This document shows, piece after piece, positions 316 through 26,371 of a DNA stretch of 35,080 bases. This stretch comes from a virus (Duplodnaviria; Caudoviricetes): IMG/VR virus record IMGVR_UViG_3300020151_000934, positions 1 to 35,080 of that record, one strand, 5' to 3'. The notes under the pieces were generated by a model that worked only from the letters and a program-made list of their open reading frames with translations, was not told the origin of the DNA and made no database searches. Every line of letters begins with the position of its first letter. The first letter of the stretch is position 1. The position numbers and the translations under genes are program-made.

Positions 316-721
316 GAATAATAATCATTTTGAAATTATCAAAAATAAAAGACTTAAACAAGTACATTCTACAAAAGAATTCTTTGCTGGAGAGACCGTT
401 CTATTTATATGTTGTGAAGAATCAAGAATACCTTCTCAACACACAATACAATTAGATGTAAATTACCATGTATTAGACCCTATTGTAAAGTATATTAAGC
501 ATTCCTTTGATCCTAACGTAAAAGTAGAGGGACACTCTTTAGTAGCCATTAGGAAAATAAGAGAAGGAGATGAGATAACGAGAAACTATTACGAAACTGA
601 GGAAATTATTGTAAAGGAATTTACTGATAAGGAAACAGGAGAAAAAGTAAATACAAAGAATCTCTATTTATATAACAATAAACACACTGAAGATGGATTA
701 CTATTTGATGCAGAATTTTGA
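308..721 (+). CDS. Minimal SET-domain protein (putative lysine methyltransferase)
   Basis: VKYIKHSFDPNV resembles R(F/Y)INHSCxPN, LVAIRKIREGDEITRNY resembles A.RDI..GEE(L/I)T.DY, and N-terminal STKEFFAGETV resembles A...I..GE.I. Confidence 0.8.
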   Translation: MSKNNNHFEIIKNKRLKQVHSTKEFFAGETVLFICCEESRIPSQHTIQLDVNYHVLDPIVKYIKHSFDPNVKVEGHSLVAIRKIREGDEITRNYYETEEIIVKEFTDKETGEKVNTKNLYLYNNKHTEDGLLFDAEF

Positions 722-1244: not shown

Positions 1245-1285
1245 ATAACACACACAAAACAATTAACTTAATAAAATTAACAATT

Positions 1286-1504: not shown

Positions 1505-1741
1505 ATGATTATTTTTATAGACCTCACTACAAATAAGATAGAGATTGATGGATGCGAAGATCCTGAGTTAGATGTGCAAAAAACTTTGCGAAAAATAGCA
1601 AAGAATATTGATAAGTATGAAGTAGAGCAGGTTTCTATAAAGAAAGAGATGGAAAAAATGATTAACAAAATTATTTCTAACAGAATTGTTATAAAGGGAT
1701 TTAATGATGATGTTAAACCTAGAGAAACAAAAGATAAATGA
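1505..1741 (+). CDS. Hypothetical protein (78 aa)
   Basis: ATGA overlap with terL suggests translational coupling. Confidence 0.7.
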   Translation: MIIFIDLTTNKIEIDGCEDPELDVQKTLRKIAKNIDKYEVEQVSIKKEMEKMINKIISNRIVIKGFNDDVKPRETKDK

Positions 1742-4041
1742 TTATAGAGACTTCTTATATTTTTCCTAAAATATATGACAATACACCTTTTATTAAGCAT
1801 CACCCTGTTTTACATCCTCATAGTACAGCTTATGCTGAATATTGGACTAAAGAACTTGAGGAGTTTATTTTAGGGCTATGGAGAGAAGAACAAACTCCTG
1901 AAGGTATTCGTTGGAGGTATATGAATCCTCAATTAAATTACTTTACCAACTATCACACCATCACTATTCAAGATGGTAAGCAGCGTATTAAATCCAGGCC
2001 TAGCCTATTGGACATAAACTGGACAATATTAAATTGTTGGTTTATTTGTAGAGGATTTAGTGGATTTGACGGAGACGAGGAATATACATCTAATTGGACT
2101 GTAAAGTTAAAGGAAGATAAACTAATAAACCCTAATCTTCCAGATATTCCTCTAAAGTTTCTTAATAACCTTACTGACAACTGCTATAAGCAGGATGGCA
2201 CCTTAAAAAAGTATATAGATCCTTTAGAATATCTTAATGGTACCCATGAAATAAATTTAGGCAATCCTTTATATGAAAATAACTCTTTAAACTTATTTCT
2301 ACTAGGATCTCGGTCTGGAGGTAAATCCTTTATGGCATCTGCTCTTATGGAGCATGAGTGGCTATCAGACGGTGCTAAGACAGTGGAGGATTATTTATCA
2401 GGAAATAACAAAGTGGAAATATTTTGTGGATCAGCCAGTTCAGGTAAATCTTCTCAGCTTTTAGATAAATTCTCAAACTCTTTAAAGAATCTTCCTGGAG
2501 AGTACTTTGACAGAGAATATTTCCCTTCTCCTTTTAGCAGAACCTTCTCAGGTACCTTGAAAGTTGGTAACTCAAAGAATCCTTTTAGGTTTGAGTATGA
2601 AAAGAAAATAGGAAACTCTACAGTGAAAGAGGGGACAGGATCTCTTCTTATCCATGAAACCTATAAAGATAATAAGCAAGCTGCTGTAGGGGGTCGTTAC
2701 AACGTACTAATAGTGGAAGAGGTGGGATTAGAAGACAAAATCCTCACTGTACATGGAGCAAATGAATCTACGCAAGATATGGGAGCAGGTAAGTTTGGAT
2801 CATCATTCTACTTAGGAACGGGTGGAGACATGGAGAAAGTTATTGAGTCTGAGATTATCTTCAGAGACCCTGAAGCTTATGATTTCTTAGGATTTAAAGA
2901 TGTCTACGAAGGTAGAGGAGTTATTGGATTCTTTCTTCCTTCTATTTACACCAACTTAGCTTATAAAGATGAAAACGGTAATACTGATGTAGATACCGCT
3001 TTGAAATACGAGATGGAGAGACGTGAAGAAAAGAAACAAGCAAATAATACGTCTGCCTATGATGAGTATATCATGTCTAGGCCAATTAAGCCTTCTGAAA
3101 TGTTTCTCTCAAAAACTGGAAATAAGTTTCCTATTGTTATGCTTAGAGAACAGCAGGCTTCTAATGATAGGTACCAGTTTAAAAAACATTTAAGAACATT
3201 AGGACATCTTGTAGAAGATCCTGATTTTATTTCGGGAGTTAAATTTAAGCCTAACTTTGATTTGAGACCTATAGATAGGTTTCCTCATGATTCTAAGTCA
3301 GATTTAAAAAGTGCTTGGGAATTTTATGAACACCCTCCTGCGGGAATGATACCTCCTAATTTATTTAAGATTGTATATGACCCTATTAGAGATGAAGGAG
3401 GGGGAACATCCCTGGCGGCTATTTATGTTTACAAGTCTAATAATACATTAGATAATAATGGTAATGAGATTGTAGCTTGGTGGGTAGGTAGATACGATAT
3501 GCCTGAAGAAATACATCTTAATTGTGTATTAGCTGCTAAATATTTTAATGCTCAAGTAATGTTTGAGAATAACATTATTGACTTTAAGAATTATTGCATG
3601 AGGACAGGGAACTATCATATTCTGGCCCCCACTCCAAAACAAATAATTGAGAAAGCTATAAAAGACCCTACGCTAAAGTATGATGTAGGAGTACCAATGA
3701 CAAACCCTTTAAAGCAATATGCTTTAAGATTGGCACAACAATGGCTGTTAGAGGAGAAGAAAAAGTATGTAGAAGAGCTAGAAGATGGTACTAAGAGAGA
3801 AATAGTGGTGAGAAACTTAAATACTCTTAAAGATGATTTGCTATTAGAAGAGCTCATACAGTTCAATGACAAGGGAAACTTTGACCGAGTGTCTGCCTTT
3901 CTCTTACTAATGCTTTGGCTAGAGCAAGATAAAGAAATGATTATCAGCGAGTCCGAAGAAATAGTGAAAAAAACGTCAAATGATTTTTATAAAGATTTAT
4001 ATAATAACCAGTTAAAAAACACCAATTTACTGAAATATTAA
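1738..4041 (+). CDS. terL: Terminase large subunit, crAss-like
   Basis: Walker A LGSRSGGKS, Walker B VLIVEEVG, motif LGTGG, nuclease acidic motifs VYDPI, FENN and NFDRVSA. 767 aa, directly upstream of the portal. Confidence 0.93.
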   Translation: MIIETSYIFPKIYDNTPFIKHHPVLHPHSTAYAEYWTKELEEFILGLWREEQTPEGIRWRYMNPQLNYFTNYHTITIQDGKQRIKSRPSLLDINWTILNCWFICRGFSGFDGDEEYTSNWTVKLKEDKLINPNLPDIPLKFLNNLTDNCYKQDGTLKKYIDPLEYLNGTHEINLGNPLYENNSLNLFLLGSRSGGKSFMASALMEHEWLSDGAKTVEDYLSGNNKVEIFCGSASSGKSSQLLDKFSNSLKNLPGEYFDREYFPSPFSRTFSGTLKVGNSKNPFRFEYEKKIGNSTVKEGTGSLLIHETYKDNKQAAVGGRYNVLIVEEVGLEDKILTVHGANESTQDMGAGKFGSSFYLGTGGDMEKVIESEIIFRDPEAYDFLGFKDVYEGRGVIGFFLPSIYTNLAYKDENGNTDVDTALKYEMERREEKKQANNTSAYDEYIMSRPIKPSEMFLSKTGNKFPIVMLREQQASNDRYQFKKHLRTLGHLVEDPDFISGVKFKPNFDLRPIDRFPHDSKSDLKSAWEFYEHPPAGMIPPNLFKIVYDPIRDEGGGTSLAAIYVYKSNNTLDNNGNEIVAWWVGRYDMPEEIHLNCVLAAKYFNAQVMFENNIIDFKNYCMRTGNYHILAPTPKQIIEKAIKDPTLKYDVGVPMTNPLKQYALRLAQQWLLEEKKKYVEELEDGTKREIVVRNLNTLKDDLLLEELIQFNDKGNFDRVSAFLLLMLWLEQDKEMIISESEEIVKKTSNDFYKDLYNNQLKNTNLLKY

Positions 4042-4048
4042 AATAATT

Positions 4049-4079
4049 TTTATAAAAAAATAATTTTTAATTAATTTTG
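4049..4079 (+). promoter_or_regulatory. Putative promoter TTA-N19-TAATTTTG upstream of the portal gene
   Basis: Bacteroidota -7 element TAnnTTTG at 4072-4079. 28/31 identical to 6666-6696. Confidence 0.6.
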
Positions 4080-4099
4080 TTTTTTTAAATAAACTAAAA

Positions 4100-6610
4100 A
4101 TGGTAATAAACGATAGTTTAACCGCACAATTCTTAAACATGCCTGGAAGTGATAGGCTAAGTTATAAGAAAAAAATAGCTGATAACTATGCCTGGGCAAG
4201 GCAGAGAATGGATTACCTATGCAATCAATATAATTATTATAACGAAAGGAAAGAAAAGTTTAAAATCAACTACGAGTTATATAACGGTAGAATGGATTTT
4301 ACAAGTTATATAAATACAGGAAATATAATTGAGAATGAATTAGGAATGGATATTCCAGAAATGGAAATAAATCAAAGTGATTTTATACATTTTCCTATAC
4401 TACAGAATGTGTTGCATGACCTAGAGGGTGAGGAAATTAAAAGACCTTTTAATCTTAGAGTGGTAAGTACCAACTCTACAAGTGAATCTGTGAGACAAAG
4501 AACTCGTAGAGAACTTTTAGTTGAGAATACTTCAAAGATTGTCAAGCAAGATTTACTCTTAAAAGCAAAAGCAGCCAATCAAAAAAGATTGGAAGAAATA
4601 AAGGCTCAGATGGACCCGTCAATGGACCCTCAGTATTTAGAGAAATTACAAGAAATTACAGCTAACTTAGATGCTCAACTAGAGGAAACCATTAACAAAA
4701 TGACTCCTATTGAAGTAGAGACTTATATGTCTAAAGGCTTTAGATTGCCTGAAGAGAAGCTTACAGATGAGCTACTACAGTACCATATTCGTACAGATAG
4801 AATTAAATTAGTTTTTGATAAGGGCTGGAAAGATGTAATTATTACAGGAGAAGAGGTATATTGGACAGGAGAGTTGAATGGTAGACCTACCATCAAAGCT
4901 TGTAATCCTTTATATTTTAACTATGCAAAATCTAAAGATGTAGATTTCTTAGATGAAGCAGACTGGTGTACTTATGATGAGTACCTTTCTATTTACGAGA
5001 TTTATCAAAAGTTTGGAAATATAATTACAGAAGAAGAAAGAGAAGTGTTTGACAAATATGAGTCTACATTAAACTCTCCATCAGATTCTAAGGTGTGGGA
5101 AATTATTCCTAATGCTATTATGAATCCTACAGATTCTGAGGCTACCCCTAGCTGGATAGATCCTTGGGAAGACAATTACAGTGATAATTTTAAAATCAGA
5201 AGACTAAGAGTAACTCACGTTGTTTGGAAATCTTTGAAAAAAATTAAATATATTTTCAGATTAAATGAAAATGGTACCCTAGAAAAGACTATTGCTGATG
5301 AAACGTATGTTTTCAATAAAGAAACAGATGTTAAGCAAGAGATTCTATGGATACCTGAATTCTGGCATGGGTATAAAATATTTACCAATCCAAAGGTTTA
5401 TTTAAAGCTTGAGCCTATTCCTAATCAATATAGAGACGTTGATAATCCTTTCCAGATTAGAGGCCCTTATACAGGATCTGTTTATTCTGCAAGAAATTCA
5501 GCTCCTATAGCAATTGCAGATTTAGGAAAGCCTTGGCAGTTCTTATATAATGTAATTATCAATCAAATTATTGAATTGATGAAAACAGATATAGGAAATG
5601 TATTACTAGGGTTACAAGAGCAGATTCCAAAAGAAATGACTCCTACACAGTGGATGACTTATATTAAGAAGTTTAAAGTGGCCTTGATTAGTGCTTCAAA
5701 AGAAGGAGATTTGAGAAATATGGGTGTGGACCCTAATTATTGGAAATCAATCAACCTATCTCACGCTCAGGAGATAAACCAAAAAATACAACTATTAGAG
5801 TATATTGAGAAAAAAATGGCTCAATCTATGAGCTATAACCCTGGTAGACTAGGTCAGCAATCTCCTTACGAGTCTATAGGTAATAATCAACAAAGTATTA
5901 TTCAGTCTTCAAATCAAACGGAGAAATGGTTCTACATGCATAATTATGTAAAAGAAAGAACTGTTGAGAATTATATTGAAATATGCAAGGTAATATATAA
6001 GGAAAATCCATTAAAGGCTTCTTATATTCTTTCTGACTTGAGTGTAGCTACATTGAACACAGAGGTGGCAGATTTTGCAAACTATAACTATAAAGTGTTT
6101 ATAACGAATACATTAAGAGATACAGAGATTATTAGTCAATTGAAAAACTTGATTCAGCCTATTATTCAAAATAGTGGGGGAGATTTAAGAGTGGCTACAG
6201 AGATTCTTACTACAGAGAATGCTACAGAGGTTAAAAATATCATTGCTAGAATTCAGGAGCAAAAAGAAGCTAAAGAAGAGCAAATGCAAAAATCTCAACA
6301 AGAGCAACAAATGCAAATGCAGCAAATGCAAATTCAAGCTAAACAAGAAGAAATGAAGATGCAGAAACAAATAGCTGATGATAGAAATGCTGTAACATTG
6401 AAGTCTGCAGAGCTAAATGCTCAAAGATTAGAAAGAGCCAACGATATTGACCAGGATGGAACAAACGATTTGATTCAATTACAAATGGAAAAGAACGAAA
6501 ATGAATCAAGTGTAGAGCTCAATGACGCTAAGATAGCACAGATACAACTTCAGAATAAAAAAATTGAAACAGAAATTCAACTAATGAAACAAAAAGGGAA
6601 AAAAGATTAA
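4100..6610 (+). CDS. Portal protein, crAss-like
   Basis: 836 aa between TerL and scaffold/MCP. Contains NYELYNG and LEGEEIKRPF, plus a Q/M/E-rich C-terminal coiled coil typical of these portals. Confidence 0.88.
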   Translation: MVINDSLTAQFLNMPGSDRLSYKKKIADNYAWARQRMDYLCNQYNYYNERKEKFKINYELYNGRMDFTSYINTGNIIENELGMDIPEMEINQSDFIHFPILQNVLHDLEGEEIKRPFNLRVVSTNSTSESVRQRTRRELLVENTSKIVKQDLLLKAKAANQKRLEEIKAQMDPSMDPQYLEKLQEITANLDAQLEETINKMTPIEVETYMSKGFRLPEEKLTDELLQYHIRTDRIKLVFDKGWKDVIITGEEVYWTGELNGRPTIKACNPLYFNYAKSKDVDFLDEADWCTYDEYLSIYEIYQKFGNIITEEEREVFDKYESTLNSPSDSKVWEIIPNAIMNPTDSEATPSWIDPWEDNYSDNFKIRRLRVTHVVWKSLKKIKYIFRLNENGTLEKTIADETYVFNKETDVKQEILWIPEFWHGYKIFTNPKVYLKLEPIPNQYRDVDNPFQIRGPYTGSVYSARNSAPIAIADLGKPWQFLYNVIINQIIELMKTDIGNVLLGLQEQIPKEMTPTQWMTYIKKFKVALISASKEGDLRNMGVDPNYWKSINLSHAQEINQKIQLLEYIEKKMAQSMSYNPGRLGQQSPYESIGNNQQSIIQSSNQTEKWFYMHNYVKERTVENYIEICKVIYKENPLKASYILSDLSVATLNTEVADFANYNYKVFITNTLRDTEIISQLKNLIQPIIQNSGGDLRVATEILTTENATEVKNIIARIQEQKEAKEEQMQKSQQEQQMQMQQMQIQAKQEEMKMQKQIADDRNAVTLKSAELNAQRLERANDIDQDGTNDLIQLQMEKNENESSVELNDAKIAQIQLQNKKIETEIQLMKQKGKKD

Positions 6611-6696: not shown

Positions 6697-6739
6697 CAGT
6701 ACAAAACAATTATTTCACACACACACATAAACAAACAAT

Positions 6740-7876
6740 ATGCAAGAGAACAATTTAGATTTTGAAATTATAGAATTCAATGACGATCTTTTAGATGATA
6801 ATAACCTATCAGATAAAATAGAATCTATAAACGAAACAGAGGAAACAAATGAGGAAGAAGAAGACGATGATGATTCTTCTTTAGTTAACGCTGATTTGAT
6901 AGATGAAGATAATATTGACGACCTTGATCTTAATGATGAAGAAAAGGAAGCAATATTAAATAAGAAAAAAGAAAACGCTTCTTCTCAAAAAGAAGAAGAT
7001 GAAGATTCTTCAGAAGAAGGAGATGAAAATTCAGAGGTAGATCCTTTAAAAATATTTGCTTCAGAATTACAAGAAAAAAATCTTTTAAATCTTCCAGAAG
7101 ATTGGGATGGATCAGAAGAAGCTTTGTTTGAAGCTTATGAAGCTACTTTAGATGAAAGAGCTTTAAATTTAGTAAAGAGTTCTTATAAAATAGATGATCC
7201 TAGAGTAGACGGTGTTCTTAATTTTTTGAAGAATGGTGGAAATATTGATGAGTATATCAATTTACACGCAGAGACAAATTGGGTGGACGTAGACATTGAA
7301 GATGAAGATAATGCTACAGCTCTTGTAAAAACATATTTAACTTCGGTTAAAAATTTAGAAGAAGAAGAAGCAGAGTCACTTTTAGAAGGATATAAAGAAA
7401 AAGGAAAGCTATTTAATCAAGCTAGTAAAATACAAGCTGATTTAAAGGTTTTCAGAGAAAAACAAGAAGACGATCTTATAAAATCTCAACAAGAATATGC
7501 TCGTATCCAAAGAGAAGAGTATATTAAGAGTGTAAATAAAATTAGAGAGACTATTCAAAGTGGTAAGAGCAATAATGTAGTTATTGCTAAAAACCAAAAA
7601 AGTAATTTTGAAGATTTTATCTTTTCACCACAAGAGATAAGAAACAATAAGGGAGAGGTTGTAGGAAGAGCTACAGGGTTTAAACAAAAATTAAATGAGT
7701 ATCTTTCTGATCCTGAAAAAATGGTAGCATTAGCTTACAAAATATTTGAAGGATTGTCAGATAAGTCAGATAAAGTTGAAGTAGCAAGTAAAGAAAAAAG
7801 TAAATTGGCGGAAAGTTTGAGAAGAGCTTCTGGGAAAACAAAGCCAAATACAATTAAATTAGAATTCATAAATTAA
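6740..7876 (+). CDS. Putative capsid scaffolding protein
   Basis: Very acidic low-complexity N-terminus and helical C-terminus, located between portal and MCP. Confidence 0.7.
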   Translation: MQENNLDFEIIEFNDDLLDDNNLSDKIESINETEETNEEEEDDDDSSLVNADLIDEDNIDDLDLNDEEKEAILNKKKENASSQKEEDEDSSEEGDENSEVDPLKIFASELQEKNLLNLPEDWDGSEEALFEAYEATLDERALNLVKSSYKIDDPRVDGVLNFLKNGGNIDEYINLHAETNWVDVDIEDEDNATALVKTYLTSVKNLEEEEAESLLEGYKEKGKLFNQASKIQADLKVFREKQEDDLIKSQQEYARIQREEYIKSVNKIRETIQSGKSNNVVIAKNQKSNFEDFIFSPQEIRNNKGEVVGRATGFKQKLNEYLSDPEKMVALAYKIFEGLSDKSDKVEVASKEKSKLAESLRRASGKTKPNTIKLEFIN

Positions 7877-7902
7877 ATATTCAAAAATAAAATTAAATTA
7901 AC

Positions 7903-9480
7903 ATGAAATTATCACAAAGTAAATTCGGTATTATAAAAGCTCCTACGATTACAGGTGATCGTAACTGGGGTATGAACTATACCAACTTAAACAATCTATA
8001 TGCTGCAGGTTTGATTAAAACAGACGTAGACGCATTAGGTGGTATGGGTCAATTAGCATCAATGAAAACATTGTTTGACGGTACTGCACCATTATTGGAA
8101 CTAGCTCAAGGCTCTGACACTATCACTATTGAAGGTGACAAAGTAGAATGGGAATTCATGGTTTCAGGATACAGACCAGCTCTTATCGTGGAAGACGTTG
8201 AAGCAGGAAACCTTACAAAAGGTATTGCTCAAAGAGAGTTTAAAATTAAACTTGACATTGGAACATTTGTAGAAGGTGATACATTGGTATTCACTGACAG
8301 CAAAAAATTCAATATGCGTGTAAGTAAAGCTCCAGTTAAAGAAGGATCTTTCACAGTTTACACAGTTAAATTGATGACTGACAGCCCAAGCTTGTTTGTT
8401 GACAATAGTTTGTTCACTCCAGGAACAAGAGTAATGAAAATGCACTCTACTTATTCTGAGGCATCTGTAAAAGGTGGTTCAATGAGTGTTGATGCTATCG
8501 GTAAAATTAAATTCCGTTCTGGATTGACAAGATTTAGAAAACAATACCAAATGACAGGAGATGCTGCTCAAAGAAGATTGAACGGTAACTTGTCTGAGGC
8601 AGATTTGTTGATCTTGGCAGGAAGAAAAGCAGGTGAGAGCCAACAAGCTTTCCAAACAAGAATTGCTAACGCATTGAGCAAGAAAAATACAGGTAACATG
8701 TATATTACTTCAGTTGCTGAGGTTAAATTCAACAAAGAATTTGAAATGGAAAAAGAACTTCACTTGATGTATCAAAGAAGTACTTCTACAGTTATTGACG
8801 AGTCTACAGGATACTTTGTAAACCAAGGTCCAGGTCTTCAAGAGATTTTGGAAGACGGATACAGAGAATTCTACAACACTTTCTCTATTGGTCTTATCAA
8901 AGACTTCTTGCAAGATATATTCTTCGGAAGAGTTGCTTACGATCAAAGAAATGTTGTAATGTGGACTGGAGAGATTGGATTGAGATTGTTTGATGAGGCT
9001 ATCAACCAAATAACTCAAGGTTTCTTCAAAGATATGAAAGATTATTTCATCAAAACAGATGGTGCTTCATTGGTACCAGGTGGACCAACAGGATTGTCTT
9101 ACACTGAAACTCCATACACTCAATACAAATTGAAATTTGGTGGTTCATTGACAGTTATGCACATGAAAGCTTATGATGATGTAACTTTCAACACTATCTT
9201 AGATGAGAATGGTTACCCAGCAGAGTCTTCAAGATTTACATTCGTTAACTACGGATTGGGAGATGGTTTTGGTAAAAACATTTCTTACTTGAAATCTAAG
9301 AGAGATGTAGCTTACGGTTACGAAGGTGGATTGTCAAGCCCTTACGGAAACAACCAAGGAGCATTGATGTCTCACTCAGGTGACTTCTGGACAGTACATA
9401 GAATGGAATACGCAGGTATCATGGTAAAAGATGTTACAAAATGCGGTGAGTTGATTCCAGCAGTATTAAGAGGAAAATAA
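7903..9480 (+). CDS. Major capsid protein, crAss-like
   Basis: 525 aa following the scaffold. Motifs VEWEF, QGPGLQEILE and VMWTGEIG. Strong codon bias (TTC, AAC, TAC, GGT) and a downstream terminator. Confidence 0.88.
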   Translation: MKLSQSKFGIIKAPTITGDRNWGMNYTNLNNLYAAGLIKTDVDALGGMGQLASMKTLFDGTAPLLELAQGSDTITIEGDKVEWEFMVSGYRPALIVEDVEAGNLTKGIAQREFKIKLDIGTFVEGDTLVFTDSKKFNMRVSKAPVKEGSFTVYTVKLMTDSPSLFVDNSLFTPGTRVMKMHSTYSEASVKGGSMSVDAIGKIKFRSGLTRFRKQYQMTGDAAQRRLNGNLSEADLLILAGRKAGESQQAFQTRIANALSKKNTGNMYITSVAEVKFNKEFEMEKELHLMYQRSTSTVIDESTGYFVNQGPGLQEILEDGYREFYNTFSIGLIKDFLQDIFFGRVAYDQRNVVMWTGEIGLRLFDEAINQITQGFFKDMKDYFIKTDGASLVPGGPTGLSYTETPYTQYKLKFGGSLTVMHMKAYDDVTFNTILDENGYPAESSRFTFVNYGLGDGFGKNISYLKSKRDVAYGYEGGLSSPYGNNQGALMSHSGDFWTVHRMEYAGIMVKDVTKCGELIPAVLRGK

Positions 9481-9495
9481 AACCCGATAGGCTTT

Positions 9496-9530
9496 AGGGT
9501 ATGAGCCATCTAATCATACCCTTTTTTTTT
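9496..9530 (+). terminator. Intrinsic terminator after MCP
   Basis: AGGGTATGA (9496-9504) pairs with TCATACCCT (9514-9522), followed by a T-tract. Confidence 0.85.
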
Positions 9531-9550
9531 CTATCATTTGATAGAAGGAT

Positions 9551-9621
9551 AGCAGGAGGGAGGTATGGATCTCTCTGGTCTCATAAACCAGTTTAACCAG
9601 TTCGAGTCTGAGTCGTTGCTA
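9551..9621 (+). tRNA. Degenerate tRNA or tRNA-like element, anticodon CAT
   Basis: Acceptor AGCAG/TTGCT, D-stem GAGG/TCTC, perfect anticodon arm CTGGT-CTCATAA-ACCAG, T-loop TTCGAGT. T-stem is bulged, U8 and A14 are absent, and there is no CCA. Confidence 0.7.
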
Positions 9622-9655
9622 CTATTTTTTTTTAAATCACACAAACAACAAAACA

Positions 9656-10567
9656 ATGAGTACATTATTAAACAAGAGGGTAAAAATTTACCCAAACATT
9701 AAAAAGAATAAGCATTGGCAAGTAAATATTGACCCTGCTTATAGACAAGCTTCTGAAAGCTATGCATTTTTGGCTAATGCTAATACCATTAGACCTCAAT
9801 TTGATGAGAATGCTTACAGATACAATCTAGGTCCTATCAATGATAGATACACTGATGAACAAATAAATGAATTAGTAAGAAAACTTGCATTAAATGATGA
9901 GTATACTAATCAAAAAATAACTTCAGCAGATCCTTCTAATAGAAGAGACCCATTCTTTACACATACTAAGTGTAGAGCTAAATTAGGAAGAGATATTCAA
10001 ATTCTTGACCTAAACAAACCGACAGAAGAATTGATTTATGCAATCATGTCGGCAGATTCAATGACAGTGGTGGGAGAGACTTCTCTGTCTAAACATCCAG
10101 CCGCAGAGTGGATTATTGAAGATGAAATAGCAGATGCTACTGTGAGAGAGTCTAAGCGTGAAAAAACAAGTAAATTACACGAAAGATACAACAAACTCAC
10201 ACTATCTCAAAAGAGAGACATGAGTACCGCTTTAGGTATTAAATTGACAGGAGATGAGAAAGAAGTGATTATAGAAGACTTATTGTACTCTAAGATTACT
10301 GAAAACACCAATAAAGAAACCTTGGCAGCTATTCAAGATTTATTTATTGAGCTATCAGATTCTAAAAATAAAGCAAAATTGGAAGTTACTATCAATGTTG
10401 AGAAAATGTACCAATATGCAGTGTTGAGAAAGGAAAATATTAAAGTATTCTTTAACGGAGAGCAACTTCAAACAGATACTATAAATATTATTGATTTCTT
10501 ACAAAAACCAGAAAATTCATCATTATATTTAAGCCTAGAAGAGGCTTTAAAAGCTAAAATGAAATAA
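9656..10567 (+). CDS. Hypothetical protein following MCP
   Basis: 303-aa ORF with a TAATG overlap to the next gene. Function not recognised. Confidence 0.75.
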   Translation: MSTLLNKRVKIYPNIKKNKHWQVNIDPAYRQASESYAFLANANTIRPQFDENAYRYNLGPINDRYTDEQINELVRKLALNDEYTNQKITSADPSNRRDPFFTHTKCRAKLGRDIQILDLNKPTEELIYAIMSADSMTVVGETSLSKHPAAEWIIEDEIADATVRESKREKTSKLHERYNKLTLSQKRDMSTALGIKLTGDEKEVIIEDLLYSKITENTNKETLAAIQDLFIELSDSKNKAKLEVTINVEKMYQYAVLRKENIKVFFNGEQLQTDTINIIDFLQKPENSSLYLSLEEALKAKMK

Positions 10568-11271
10568 TGTTTTCAATAAAAGAAGCCCATTATAAATTTA
10601 AACAACATGCTAACAAGGTAGATGGGTTAAGAAACGCTAACTTTCTTATACCTCAGATAGATGAATATCTTTTTGAAGCATATATAATTTATATTGAAAA
10701 TATTTGCGAACAACTAGAAATAAACCAAAAAAGAAGAGATGACATAAGGGAGCTGGAAATAAAAAATTTTCCACTCCCAGTCACTAAGATTAACGAAGAC
10801 TATTACACTGCAGATTTACCCGCAGATTATTATAGATACTTAGAGTCTTATTCTGTATGCTTTACAGAGAAATGTCCAAAGAAAACTATTAAGAATTTTT
10901 TCATACAAAAGGATGATATTTATACAAATGATCCAATGTTTAATTCTTCTTATGTGTTTGAAAGAGTGAACATGGATATGTCAGGTAATAAGTTATACCT
11001 ATACTATGAAGGATTCGATATAGAGAAAATATTTCTTTCTTATATTAGAAAACCTTTAAGGCCAGGAAATCCGCAAGATTTTACTTATGGAAATGGTACA
11101 TATAACCTTCCTGATGGCACCCCTGCTGTTCAAAGAGATATAGAAATCAACTCCACTTTCCAAGCAAACAAGATTATAGATATTGCAGTATTAATAGCAA
11201 TGAGAGATGTGGGTAATACTATAGATTTTGAGTCACAATTAAATAAAATTTTAAACATATCAAAAATTTAA
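10567..11271 (+). CDS. Putative head-tail ring/adaptor protein
   Basis: HYKFKQHANKVD...NFLIPQIDEYL, LPADYYRYL and LSYIRKP resemble crAss-like ring proteins. Confidence 0.65.
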   Translation: MFSIKEAHYKFKQHANKVDGLRNANFLIPQIDEYLFEAYIIYIENICEQLEINQKRRDDIRELEIKNFPLPVTKINEDYYTADLPADYYRYLESYSVCFTEKCPKKTIKNFFIQKDDIYTNDPMFNSSYVFERVNMDMSGNKLYLYYEGFDIEKIFLSYIRKPLRPGNPQDFTYGNGTYNLPDGTPAVQRDIEINSTFQANKIIDIAVLIAMRDVGNTIDFESQLNKILNISKI

Positions 11272-11293
11272 TAAACCTTAAATAAATTTCAAA

Positions 11294-12469
11294 ATGAGAT
11301 CAAGAATTCAAAAACAAATGTTCCTTCCAACTGCCGCAGTAGCAGGTAGTGCGACAGGATACGGTATTGTTCCAACTGGTACAGCGTTTTATAATGCTAC
11401 CACTAAACAATACTTATTAAGACCAGGTCAAATCGGATTTTACAATGCCGCGACCAACACAGCAGTAGATGCTACTACTATCGTAGGAGTAAAATCTATT
11501 TTTATTGCAATTGGTGTAGATAAAACTGCATCTAAATTAACTTCAGACAATGTAAGATTGGCTTCAGGTGAAACTATTACATCTTGTTCAATTGATGATG
11601 CAAGTGTAGTAGCTCCACAAGCAGGTGAGTCTAACAAAGCTAAGTTTAACTTCTCTTGTACAGATTGTTCACAAAACTATTCTATTGGAATCAGAATTAA
11701 CGATCCTACATTGAACTTTTTCTACCCAGAAAACAGATACCATGTAGAATTGATTTCTGTTCAATCAGAAGAGTGTCCTTCTTGCGATGGAGATTGTAAC
11801 TATACTCACGATTGTGAAGAAGTTGCATTGAAATTGAAAGCAGAGATTGAAGCAAATGAACTATTGTCTAAATATGTAGACGAAGTAAGAACTTCTGCAG
11901 ATCCAGTTAGTCCAATAACTCCAGCAGCAGGTTTCTCTTGTGCAATCGAAGTTACTTTCAAAGTAAACACTGCAGAGTGTGTATGTTTCCCTCCATCAGA
12001 AGCTATCATTGATAGATATACTATCGGTTCTATTCAAGTAATCTTGAATTCAGCTTGGGCTCCAAATTCTACAAGTGTTTCTGTAGACAATACAGGAATG
12101 CAATTGCCAGAAGGTCATGGTGCTAAGTTGCAGTGGGAAGAATACCATGAAATGCCAGGTGGTACAGGTTTCGATGGTTTGAACAGTGAAGTTGAAACTA
12201 CAGGAGCTCCTTACTATGCTCAATTGAATGTATCAAGAACTAAAAACCTATTGGTAGATTGTAATCAAACATATTGCCAATATGTATTAGGATACCATAC
12301 AGTTTCTCCAAATGAGAATGCAAACAGCATGAACTGGAATCCAAACTTTATCACAACTATCTTAGTTCCAATTTCACATAGTACTACTCAAGCAGCGGTT
12401 GAGGCTGCGTTAAATGCTTTTGTAACTACAGGACCTTGTGGAAAAACAATTGACCTTCAGTGTGATTAA
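11294..12469 (+). CDS. Abundant structural protein (auxiliary capsid protein candidate), 14 Cys
   Basis: MCP-like codon bias, own terminator, beta-rich 391 aa, position in the head module. Confidence 0.6.
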   Translation: MRSRIQKQMFLPTAAVAGSATGYGIVPTGTAFYNATTKQYLLRPGQIGFYNAATNTAVDATTIVGVKSIFIAIGVDKTASKLTSDNVRLASGETITSCSIDDASVVAPQAGESNKAKFNFSCTDCSQNYSIGIRINDPTLNFFYPENRYHVELISVQSEECPSCDGDCNYTHDCEEVALKLKAEIEANELLSKYVDEVRTSADPVSPITPAAGFSCAIEVTFKVNTAECVCFPPSEAIIDRYTIGSIQVILNSAWAPNSTSVSVDNTGMQLPEGHGAKLQWEEYHEMPGGTGFDGLNSEVETTGAPYYAQLNVSRTKNLLVDCNQTYCQYVLGYHTVSPNENANSMNWNPNFITTILVPISHSTTQAAVEAALNAFVTTGPCGKTIDLQCD

Positions 12470-12525
12470 TTATAAAATTAATATTATTAAGTAAAATTAA
12501 TTAATATATTGTTTTGTGTGTGGAG

Positions 12526-12563
12526 TAGGTGGTAGAGGAAACTTTACCGCCTATTTTTTTTTT
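12526..12563 (+). terminator. Intrinsic terminator with GAAA loop
   Basis: TAGGTGGTAGAG-GAAA-CTTTACCGCCTA followed by a T-tract. Confidence 0.88.
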
Positions 12564-12580
12564 ATATACATAACATAAAT

Positions 12581-12611
12581 TTTATAATATAAAAATTAAT
12601 ACTTACTTTTG
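12581..12611 (+). promoter_or_regulatory. Putative promoter TTA-N19-TACTTTTG for the fibre gene block
   Basis: Same 31-bp geometry as 4049 and 6666, directly after a terminator. Confidence 0.6.
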
Positions 12612-12632: not shown

Positions 12633-13478
12633 ATGAAAAGAATTAATATTATTTCAGAGACAATTTATAAAGGCCAGCATAAACTTGTTAATCAAGGTGC
12701 CTTTGTTAATATGTCAGACTTAATGGGAGATATATTCTCTTGTTTTGGAATCACTTGTTGCAATGGGCTTCTTGCCAGCAAATCAGATTTCTTTTTAAGA
12801 AAATCAGCTTTAATTTATAGCAGAAAAAAACCAGGTGCCAATTGGCAATCCTTAAATAAAATGGTTTTAGATGTTTATAACTGTTTTGTAGGTACAATAC
12901 TATGTCCAGGATCAAGAAGTGCACAATGGTGGATAACTACAGATGTTATTAGACCCGCAAAAACTGTTGAAACTATCAACTTCACCCCAATTATAGAAAA
13001 AGTATTAGATTGTTGTGGCATTATTAACACATGTATTCCAATAAACTTTAGAGCTTATCAGGAAGATTGGGTAGCAGCAGGAATATCTAATGAAGCTGAT
13101 TTCTTAGCATTACTAGTTGCTATGGGTAATGGAACCCCAGTTGTAAGTAATTTTTCATTATCATCATCCATTCCATCTGCAGTAACACTAAACAATTTTA
13201 TTGCAGCATCTATTTCAGGAGCAGAAATACTAGACTTTACATTCTTAACGCCTTCTTCTGAGTTAAATTTAATAACTACTCTACCTATAGAAACTTCTTA
13301 TATAGATGTTTCTGGGCAAGCGTTTAATACAGATAGTTTAGATATTTTAGGAGGATTATTCTTACAAGGTACTTTACCTAAGAGTTATTGGGATAGTTCA
13401 AGCCAATTATCTTCTGACCAACCTAGTGCGGGTGTTCAGGCAGATTTAACTGCAGATGTAAACACTGTTACTTTTTAA
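12633..13478 (+). CDS. Cys-rich putative virion fibre/decoration protein, paralog of the next gene
   Basis: N-terminal ~130 aa aligns with 13491..14084 (IISE.I.KGQ, DIF.C, QWWI, IRP.KT.ET.NF, CCG). Confidence 0.65.
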   Translation: MKRINIISETIYKGQHKLVNQGAFVNMSDLMGDIFSCFGITCCNGLLASKSDFFLRKSALIYSRKKPGANWQSLNKMVLDVYNCFVGTILCPGSRSAQWWITTDVIRPAKTVETINFTPIIEKVLDCCGIINTCIPINFRAYQEDWVAAGISNEADFLALLVAMGNGTPVVSNFSLSSSIPSAVTLNNFIAASISGAEILDFTFLTPSSELNLITTLPIETSYIDVSGQAFNTDSLDILGGLFLQGTLPKSYWDSSSQLSSDQPSAGVQADLTADVNTVTF

Positions 13479-13490
13479 TAAATAGACTGC

Positions 13491-14084
13491 ATGTACATAA
13501 TATCAGAAGCAATTTTTAAGGGACAAGGTAAGGCTGCTAAATTAGCAGGCTATACCAGTTTCAGCAATATATTATGTGATATATTTAATTGCTATAGTCT
13601 AACTTGTGATGCTACTTCAAATACCTATTTAAAGAAAGCATATATCATTAAATCTAATAAAAGGCCTAAGAATAAGTTTATTTCTCTTACAAAGCTTATA
13701 TTAGATATATATAACTGTAAAGCAGGTACTACACTTTGTGTAGATTCAACTGATTTTCAATGGTGGATAGATGGAGGTCAAATTAGACCAAAAGCTACTA
13801 TTGAAACTTTGAACTTTGACAAGATAGTAACTAATTTGCTAATCTGTTGTGGATTAGTATCTTGCGGTGGATGTAGTTTAGCAAATGCTACAGTAGATCT
13901 ATTAGACTTAGCAGGTAATCATATTGCATATATATTCCCTAATAATACTATTTGCCCCCAAGCAACGGTGCCTCTAAATGATTTAGCAGGAAACTTACTA
14001 GGATATATTCTTCCAACTAATACAGATGGAACTACAGAGGAAATAAAAGATTTAGCAGGAAATACCCTAGGATGGGCATATTAA
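13491..14084 (+). CDS. Cys-rich putative virion protein with three C-terminal DLAGN repeats
   Basis: Paralogous N-terminus; repeats DLAGNHIAY, DLAGNLLGY, DLAGNTLGW. Confidence 0.65.
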   Translation: MYIISEAIFKGQGKAAKLAGYTSFSNILCDIFNCYSLTCDATSNTYLKKAYIIKSNKRPKNKFISLTKLILDIYNCKAGTTLCVDSTDFQWWIDGGQIRPKATIETLNFDKIVTNLLICCGLVSCGGCSLANATVDLLDLAGNHIAYIFPNNTICPQATVPLNDLAGNLLGYILPTNTDGTTEEIKDLAGNTLGWAY

Positions 14085-25715: not shown

Positions 25716-25723
25716 AAAAACTA

Positions 25724-25753
25724 TTGACAGTTAGAAATATTGTTGTATATTTG
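25724..25753 (+). promoter_or_regulatory. Consensus Bacteroidota sigma-A promoter TTG-N19-TATATTTG
   Basis: TTG at 25724-26 and TATATTTG at 25746-53. Confidence 0.75.
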
Positions 25754-25758
25754 CAGCA

Positions 25759-26275
25759 TATTTATCTCACTGAGACAAATTTCTGGTGCCTGACGTTTGA
25801 GGGGAAACCCTGGTTCATAAGATTTCACTAGATAGTTTTAAATAAGTAAGGACCTCCGAGGATTAACAATTCAGATACCTTCAGGGAAAGGAGAGGAAAA
25901 ATAGGATCAAATGACGTAAGAATTGGGCTTCCCAGTTTCCTATAAAATACACGATAGTAAATATTCCTAAGTACAGAAATGTATATGGAAATTTATGAAC
26001 GAACTTACCAATAGAAACAAGATAGATGCGTTTATTGTAAAGTATTCAGATTTCCTAGATTTTTTCTCGGGAGAACCCTCTATTTCTTTAAATAATTACT
26101 ATAATCTAAGTTCTAGTAATATGCTCTAACTATGTCCAAAAAAAAATACAAAAAAATACATTTTTTTCTTTGAATTAAAAAAAAAGTAGTATCTTTGCAT
26201 CAGATAAATATATAGATAGAGCAATTCTGTCGGATACCCCTTGCTGATTCCCTTTGAGCAAGGGGTATTTTTTTT
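25759..26275 (+). ncRNA. Candidate structured non-coding RNA of unknown family
   Basis: Consensus promoter upstream, two GAAA-capped hairpins, exact CCTAAG/TATGG receptor, long-range helices, strong terminator downstream, and no long ORF. The 3' end is uncertain (could be near 26090). Confidence 0.55.
26169..26197 (+). promoter_or_regulatory. Bacteroidota promoter TTTG-N17-TATCTTTG
   Basis: TTTG at 26169-72 and TATCTTTG at 26190-97. Confidence 0.6.
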
Positions 26276-26276
26276 T
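26234..26276 (+). terminator. Strong intrinsic terminator
   Basis: Perfect 12-bp stem ATACCCCTTGCT/AGCAAGGGGTAT followed by a T-tract. Confidence 0.9.
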
Positions 26277-26283
26277 CTAAAAA

Positions 26284-26355
26284 CTAATAAAATCATAATT
26301 TTTTTTTACTTTTGTAAGAAATTATGTGCCATTAATAAAAAAATGTTTATTTTTG
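26284..26355 (+). promoter_or_regulatory. Tandem putative promoters for the phosphoesterase/tail operon
   Basis: TACTTTTG at 26307-14 (context resembles the 4049/6666 motif) and TATTTTTG at 26348-55. Confidence 0.5.
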
Positions 26356-26371
26356 CATAAAAATAATAAAA

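Follow-up and report, generated by a model that had tools for sequence, protein, structure and literature searches.

Small RNAs of phages are known mostly from temperate phages of Proteobacteria. Some of them have already been described to act in trans (PMC12197685). VpdS and PreS (PMC12197685) and SviR (10.1101/2022.04.08.487710) are mobile-element RNAs that recognize their targets in trans through short, imperfect pairing, and SviR lowers the translation of a putative phage structural protein. By their published descriptions, on which our comparison is based, these RNAs belong to temperate phages or to a satellite of Proteobacteria, and their action also extends to the genomes of hosts or rivals. 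AgvB, also phage-derived, follows a GU/CA pairing logic in which it holds the CA-rich side and blocks a host sRNA (PMC4104026). GcvB silences ACA enhancers with a conserved, unstructured GU-rich seed, and its several CA/ACA-rich targets are translation enhancers at ribosome-binding regions (PMC3879156); the available text of PMC9299463 holds no passage on CA-rich enhancers. GcvB is further characterized by Hfq dependence and an amino-acid transport regulon. In Bacteroides, FopS and GibS consist of a single-stranded 5′ seed with a Rho-independent terminator behind it (PMC11697453). In the general class of trans-acting sRNAs derived from 3′UTRs, a conserved seed lies in the 3′UTR and the terminator is shared with the parent mRNA.

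Here we analyze an element of this last layout in a 35,080-nucleotide stretch of viral DNA (hereafter, the window). By its sequence, the element appears to work like GcvB and FopS while being a member of neither. As in GcvB, a conserved GU-rich seed, predicted to be accessible, faces several CA/ACA-rich partners predicted at ribosome-binding regions. Unlike GcvB, which is a standalone gene, the element has a 3′UTR layout of about 55-90 nt, is encoded by a phage of a presumed Bacteroidota host, has predicted partners among phage morphogenesis genes and shows no match to the Rfam GcvB model. The order of seed and terminator is that of FopS and GibS; however, the 5′ end of GibS, as represented in oligonucleotide AWO-241, is U-rich, contains CAT and is aimed at start codons, and neither TTGTTTT nor TTTGTGTG occurs in six text supplements of PMC11697453. 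Moreover, FopS/GibS RNAs are present in 12-15 copies and have canonical TAnnTTTG promoters (PMC7366714), whereas the phage element occurs once per genome, lacks a strict promoter and has phage genes as its predicted partners. In contrast to VpdS, PreS and SviR, its carrier is a crAss-like phage, whose own late genes are the predicted partners; in contrast to AgvB, the phage encodes both the GU-rich side and the partners. In a literature search that did not extend to subscription journals or to supplements on bioRxiv, we came across no description of an RNA of this kind in Crassvirales.

Genomic setting of the element

The window represents the late arm of a freshwater phage that is crAss-like by its gene content. 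Genes for a crAss-type major capsid protein (PF23898, E 1.5e-65), terminase and portal are found in syntenic order, which places the window with Crassvirales-like phages. The nearest named relatives are the Flavobacterium phages Fpv3/FpV4, with 32% identity in the capsid protein, and Cellulophaga phage phi14:2, with 34% in the terminase. Since these relatives are phages of Flavobacterium and Cellulophaga, and since TAnnTTTG-type elements precede several genes, we infer that the host belongs to the Bacteroidota. Intergenic DNA accounts for only 1693 of the 35080 nt. The features discussed below are collected in Table 1.

Table 1. Positions of the element, its candidate partner sites and the late genes in the window
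Feature	Position	Strand	Remark
Partner site inside the 308-721 gene	435..452	+	Watson-Crick pairing to the seed at 16 of 18 positions
CA-rich leader of the 70-aa ORF at 1286	1249..1263	+	Perfect 15-nt partner
Terminase	1738-4041		Late arm of the phage
Portal	4100-6610		Late arm
Shorter second partner	6701..6710	+	Just after the Bacteroidota -7-like element CAATTTTG
(CA)n leader of the presumed scaffold gene	6713..6742	+	Main scaffold partner site
Scaffold gene, presumed	6740-7876	+	Identity deduced from its place between the portal and major capsid genes
Major capsid	7903-9480		Late arm
CA-rich leader of the 303-aa gene at 9656	9637..9658	+	Weaker partner
Parent gene of the element, 391 aa	11294..12469	+	Likely auxiliary capsid protein
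Weak AU-rich hairpin 5′ of the seed	12476..12507	+	Possible processing or 5′-end feature
GU-rich seed, core TTGTTTTGTGTG at 12509-12520	12508..12525	+	Predicted largely accessible
Intrinsic terminator hairpin and 10-T run, one-directional	12526..12563	+	Stem 12526-37/12542-53
TAnnTTTG -7 element of the next gene (12633)	12604..12611	+	Consensus as given in PMC7366714

The product of the parent gene is syntenic with FpV4 gp17 (21% identity, E 1.7e-6), and its structural model, of low confidence (pLDDT 48), has as its top fold match 7qof_a, a 333-aa chain of the crAss001 capsid, at a weak E value of 3.6e-3. Because of this synteny and fold match, the product is probably an auxiliary capsid protein. 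Sequence searches gave no name for the 1286, 6740, 9656 and 10567 proteins, nor for two proteins referred to here as MTIKEFK and 280-aa. By crAss gene order, the MTIKEFK protein may be chaperonin-like and the 280-aa protein single-strand-binding-like.

Several other features were noticed. The zone 3′ of the element (12633-14084) is occupied by two paralogues, the 12633 and 13491 genes, whose copy number and arrangement differ among relatives, and appears to be a variable tail or head-fibre region. A 656-nt intergenic stretch (25716-26371) with TAnnTTTG-type elements, a GC-richer part and a terminator-like hairpin may specify a non-coding RNA; a comparison of this stretch with Rfam gave no match. 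The terminase match of L034 extends over about 3.3 kb (2797-6129) for 759 residues, which points to an inserted stretch such as an intron. Within the 140-kb record G001, the initial 40 kb (G001:C1:1-40000; L045, L046) are mixed in strand, whereas the complete record G002 is laid out in two arms; they may be a misjoin or a foreign segment.

Conservation of the seed and its terminator

Past the stop codon of the parent gene, the weak AU hairpin, the seed, the terminator stem and ten Ts follow one another, and the -7 element of the next gene sets the whole apart from downstream transcription. We examined 69 sequences (44 viral loci, 24 metagenome loci and the window, some being the same contig in two collections). 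The 12-nt seed core is invariant in all 39 loci that reach the region (21 distinct sequences), across five deep lineages and down to 60-65% identity of the parent protein. By comparison, 32 of 156 fourfold degenerate sites are invariant across lineages, including none of the 15 sites with G or C; from these sites the chance of an invariant 12-mer is about 2e-10, before correction for having chosen the site. All 208 cells of the terminator stem are paired in an alignment of 14 sequences, and 3 of its 15 pairs covary through two-sided changes. On this comparative evidence, seed and terminator form a real feature and the seed is under purifying selection. At its 3′ end the seed of the window's clade has GTGTGGAG, where that of the other lineages has GTGGG.

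The element is present as a single copy in each of four genomes, and a covariance model detected no paralogue in four clade genomes or in the FpV4 stretch. Applied to 121 genomes from the order to which Cellulophaga belongs, the same model gave no match, a weak result for want of a positive control. A cmscan of the window against 4227 Rfam families returned no match at E<=1. Of 64 viral loci with a seed-plus-GTAGG pattern, those with a terminator hairpin all belong to this clade, and those without one looked like chance matches. A terminator stands at the corresponding position in FpV4 and phi14:2, but the seed and the CA leaders are both missing there. There are capsid homologues with identities of 52-80%, but viral contigs, scanned three times, contributed no new lineage, a fourth scan was empty and GTDB yielded one doubtful match, so that the depth between the clade and FpV4/phi14:2 is unsampled.

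No strict promoter for a standalone RNA was found within 300 nt upstream in any of 14 lineages. A candidate internal promoter, TGCTTTTG/TGCATTTG, located about 90 nt upstream in 12 of the 14, was rejected as it is explained by Ala-Phe-Val codons of the protein. Folding of forms whose 5′ end lies at most 25 nt upstream predicts a seed opening cost of 1.2-2.5 kcal/mol. Weak pairing is predicted between the seed 3′ end and the U tail, and the core may pair with A-runs upstream. In the window's clade the AU hairpin has an energy of -2.4 to -2.5 kcal/mol, as compared with -4.2 to -5.2 kcal/mol in seven distant loci; it gives way to another weak fold in L001 and L015 and is not part of the RNAalifold consensus. 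Two freshwater metatranscriptomes cover small shares of the region, with contigs over parts of 7900-12429; among the 16 listed pieces of 25 none reaches the element, and contigs of this kind show neither RNA ends nor strand.

Complementarity to CA-rich leaders

An earlier note on this DNA had drawn attention to a match between the seed and three leaders, and its coordinates all proved correct. The segment 12508-22 (ATTGTTTTGTGTGTG) matches 1249-63 perfectly in reverse complement. The shorter motif ACAAAACAAT occurs at 1254, 6701 and 9648 on the plus strand and at 12508 on the minus strand, with (CA)6 at 6716-27 and CACACAAAC at 9638-46; the copy at 9648 runs into the ATG of the 9656 gene. Four copies compare with 0.29 expected, and none of 100 shuffles reached four, for a motif chosen post hoc. 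The window contains seven perfect inverted repeats of at least 15 nt, so that the 15-mer by itself is unsurprising; the pair 12508-22/1249-63 is the only one with both arms intergenic.

These repeats could speak for coincidence: CA leaders might be kept as translation enhancers and the GU stretch for mRNA stability or termination, their low-complexity match being one of composition. Leaders in Bacteroidota are normally A-rich (PMC6847099), and exact-match permutations gave only modest ranks: across the eight data sets of the clade, 12-109 of 495 permutations match as many leaders at 9 nt, and more do so when the length is 8 or 10 nt. Composition-preserving shuffles, in contrast, rarely reach the energies of the real seed. 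In the window, 0 of 300 and 2 of 500 shuffled seeds equalled its best-leader energy, figures biased by the discovery itself; six other lineages gave 0-3 such cases per 100-200 trials, in a test that left out leaders containing fewer than three Cs and the initial 40 kb of G001. Moreover, seed and CA leaders are jointly absent from the outgroups FpV4 and phi14:2. Coincidence appears largely refuted by the matched changes in a coding site and by the scan of 1235 windows described below, and we regard it as the least credible of the explanations considered.

Ranking of targets in other genomes pointed to the same genes. In G002, seed partners stand out in 4 of 97 called leaders, namely those of the scaffold, 1286-type, 9656-type and MTIKEFK genes; their orthologues also rank high in G001 and G003, together with the leader of the 280-aa replication-arm gene. 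Further CA leaders thus lie outside the window. When opening costs are included, the two sense-strand sites with the best net energy both fall in leaders in each of the four sequences scanned (window, G001, G002 and G003), although leaders make up 5-9% of the sense sequence; the top site in G003 is the 1286-type leader. Leader duplexes mostly cover positions -22..-7. A strong CA-rich partner site (-19.1 kcal/mol) was also seen in the phoH leader of L037 (5072-5095), so that partners may be gained as well as lost.

Over 23 loci the perfect 15-nt partner, the 1249 leader, is strong in 14, degraded in 3 and, with a gene inserted, lost in 6, while the seed stays. It lies at -37..-23 from the 1286 ATG in the window and closer, at -23..-4, in L013, L015 and L019. 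The scaffold leader is a predicted partner, as proposed, yet its main site is the (CA)n block and not the copy at 6701, which is absent in the L016/L017/L032/L034 group and shows A>G variants in L013, L015 and L130. Scaffold leaders have CACACACAC where the seed is of the window type, versus CCCACAT or ACCACAT with the GTGGG type, and prefer their cognate seed in 12 of 14 distinct rows; in the exceptions, L017 and L034, the non-cognate longer seed pairs as well or better. This clade change amounts to about one event on the tree. The 9656 leader can be retained as a target of the weaker sort: its CACAC core is kept, its A-run varies and it shows no cognate preference, and most of the distant 9656 leaders pair equally well or better with the non-cognate longer seed. 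ACAAAACAC, in L021, L022 and L025, is a partner variant that breaks pairs.

Between the major-capsid terminator and the 9656 leader lies a tRNA-Met(CAT)-like element (9551-9622). It was called only at a relaxed, noisy threshold, and neither ARAGORN with default settings nor Rfam reported it. Among relatives, L016, L017, L018 and L030 show erosion of its anticodon loop, and the L020 group has a shorter tRNA-like form in its place; this points to a function as an mRNA processing signal. In L037 (1017-1640) and L029 (after 4539) an ORF has been inserted behind the 5′ half of the element and divides it in two; by its motif, the beginning of this ORF resembles a GIY-YIG homing endonuclease.

A partner site in a coding region

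The best conserved partner had been missed in the earlier note. It is found 126 nt after the start of the 308-721 gene, which encodes a SET-domain-like protein (Pfam match, E 8e-6), and pairs with the seed around an internal mismatch and a 3-nt bulge. In the scan of 1235 aligned coding windows this was the only locus at <=-18.5 kcal/mol in all five lineages; the next independent locus reached -13.4 kcal/mol, and permuted cores gave -11.1 to -13.3 kcal/mol in 12 of 12 cases. Among 32 loci with the gene (five distant matches left out), the site core is kept in 29, weakened in L346 and L355 and lost in L350; the seeds of these three lie off their contigs. In the L020 group an extra gene follows the 693 gene, and its start looks SET-like by eye.

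Changes in the seed are matched at this site. The GAG>GGG change is accompanied by a synonymous ACT>ACC change, the only such column of 247, and an A>G change confined to the L020 group by a synonymous TTA>CTA change (2 of 18 columns). At a His/Tyr codon within the site the third-position C is invariant, the only such column of 121 in the gene (12 of 459 overall). The cognate seed is best or tied in all five rows. Matched changes, of the kind that the earlier note had put forward as a test, are present both here and in the scaffold leader; in these alignments the matched synonymous changes at 435-452 are the strongest evidence for pairing, though on this small tree the matched changes amount to only two or three events that are independent.

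The same changes bear on whether the sites might be recognized by a protein, either as a DNA-binding site or late-promoter element working in both orientations, as the earlier note had offered by way of alternative, or as CA-rich RNA bound by a protein, including antisense RNA running from 12522 downwards. The short motif does recur near gene starts, one copy follows a -7-like element and TTGTTTTG is one base away from TAnnTTTG. However, the leader copies are all in the sense orientation and vary in length and promoter spacing while the reversed copy is invariant; no minus-strand TAnnTTTG lies within 400 nt in any of 14 lineages, and the terminator is one-directional. Above all, the coding partner tracks the seed despite its mismatch and bulge. 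Because of the bulges, mismatches, G-U type variants and matched synonymous changes, an RNA duplex is favoured over a DNA site, and protein recognition in any of these forms seems improbable.

Alternatively, the seed might be aimed mainly at host mRNAs with CA-rich leaders, in a form of host take-over to which the phage sites would be secondary. The core is indeed more constant than any phage leader, and in a partial scan of GTDB, made without a matched control, 45 of 120 matches to CACACAAAACAAT..ATG, and 6 of 12 leader-like ones, carry Bacteroidota names in their titles. Against this, the variable ends of the seed track phage sites, and we judge a primary role against the host very improbable.

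Discussion

The core idea of the earlier note, that a seed-plus-terminator RNA pairs with CA-rich phage sites, draws good support from conservation, from out-of-sample ranking of targets and from the matched changes. We consider it likely, from comparison of sequences, that some form of the GU-rich 3′UTR RNA engages in RNA-RNA pairing. That this form is a processed 3′UTR small RNA, which pairs in trans with phage morphogenesis messages and represses their translation, we hold to be probable on balance. Repression by a processed 3′ fragment is the best reading because the predicted leader duplexes mostly cover the -12/-13 adenines and because GcvB and FopS provide precedents.

Under this mechanism, late transcription of 9656-10567-11294 would end at about 12560. 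Nuclease trimming, suggested by the lack of an internal promoter, would leave a stable fragment of 55-90 nt. Its seed would lie over about -22..-7 in the leaders of the scaffold and 9656 genes and, in relatives, also of the 1286 ORF. Bacteroidota ribosomes do not use Shine-Dalgarno pairing. Adenines at -12/-13 promote initiation in Flavobacterium johnsoniae (PMC6847099); since the duplex would include them, 30S loading would be blocked. Pairing at 435-452 may promote cleavage or decay of the pre-terminase operon message. As a net result, accumulation of the capsid-decoration message would turn down assembly and packaging factors.

A different outcome of genuine pairing has to be weighed, in which no repressing small RNA is released. 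The seed could act from the intact mRNA 3′ end, the duplex could guide processing, stabilization or activation, or the coding site could be a sponge, for which AgvB offers a model. All the covariation evidence fits equally well here, no internal promoter was found in any of the 14 lineages, and the best conserved partner is a coding one, at a distance from the start that makes 30S occlusion impossible as its mechanism. The 9656 leader and the seed, being the two ends of one message, could even pair in cis. Cis pairing, however, cannot account for the 435 and 1249 sites, as both are upstream of the conserved major-capsid terminator. In addition, access to the seed is cheaper in short forms than in longer ones (2.7-4.9 kcal/mol), and the leader sites lie consistently over -22..-7, as suits translational blocking. 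We therefore consider this outcome unlikely, although it deserves to be taken seriously, and retain repression by a processed fragment as the preferred reading.

The natural variants of seed and partners constitute ready-made compensatory pairs. Tentatively, and with more doubt than conviction, we envisage a lytic crAss-like phage whose assembly feedback is made of RNA only: a small RNA freed from the 3′ end of a capsid message would silence the CA-rich enhancer tags of scaffold, pre-terminase and chaperonin-like messages and cut the packaging operon at co-evolving synonymous codons, a timing device independent of Shine-Dalgarno pairing that may be widespread and overlooked. If true, a self-targeting RNA in a phage of Bacteroidota would mean that late-gene output is balanced post-transcriptionally without the use of Shine-Dalgarno sequences.
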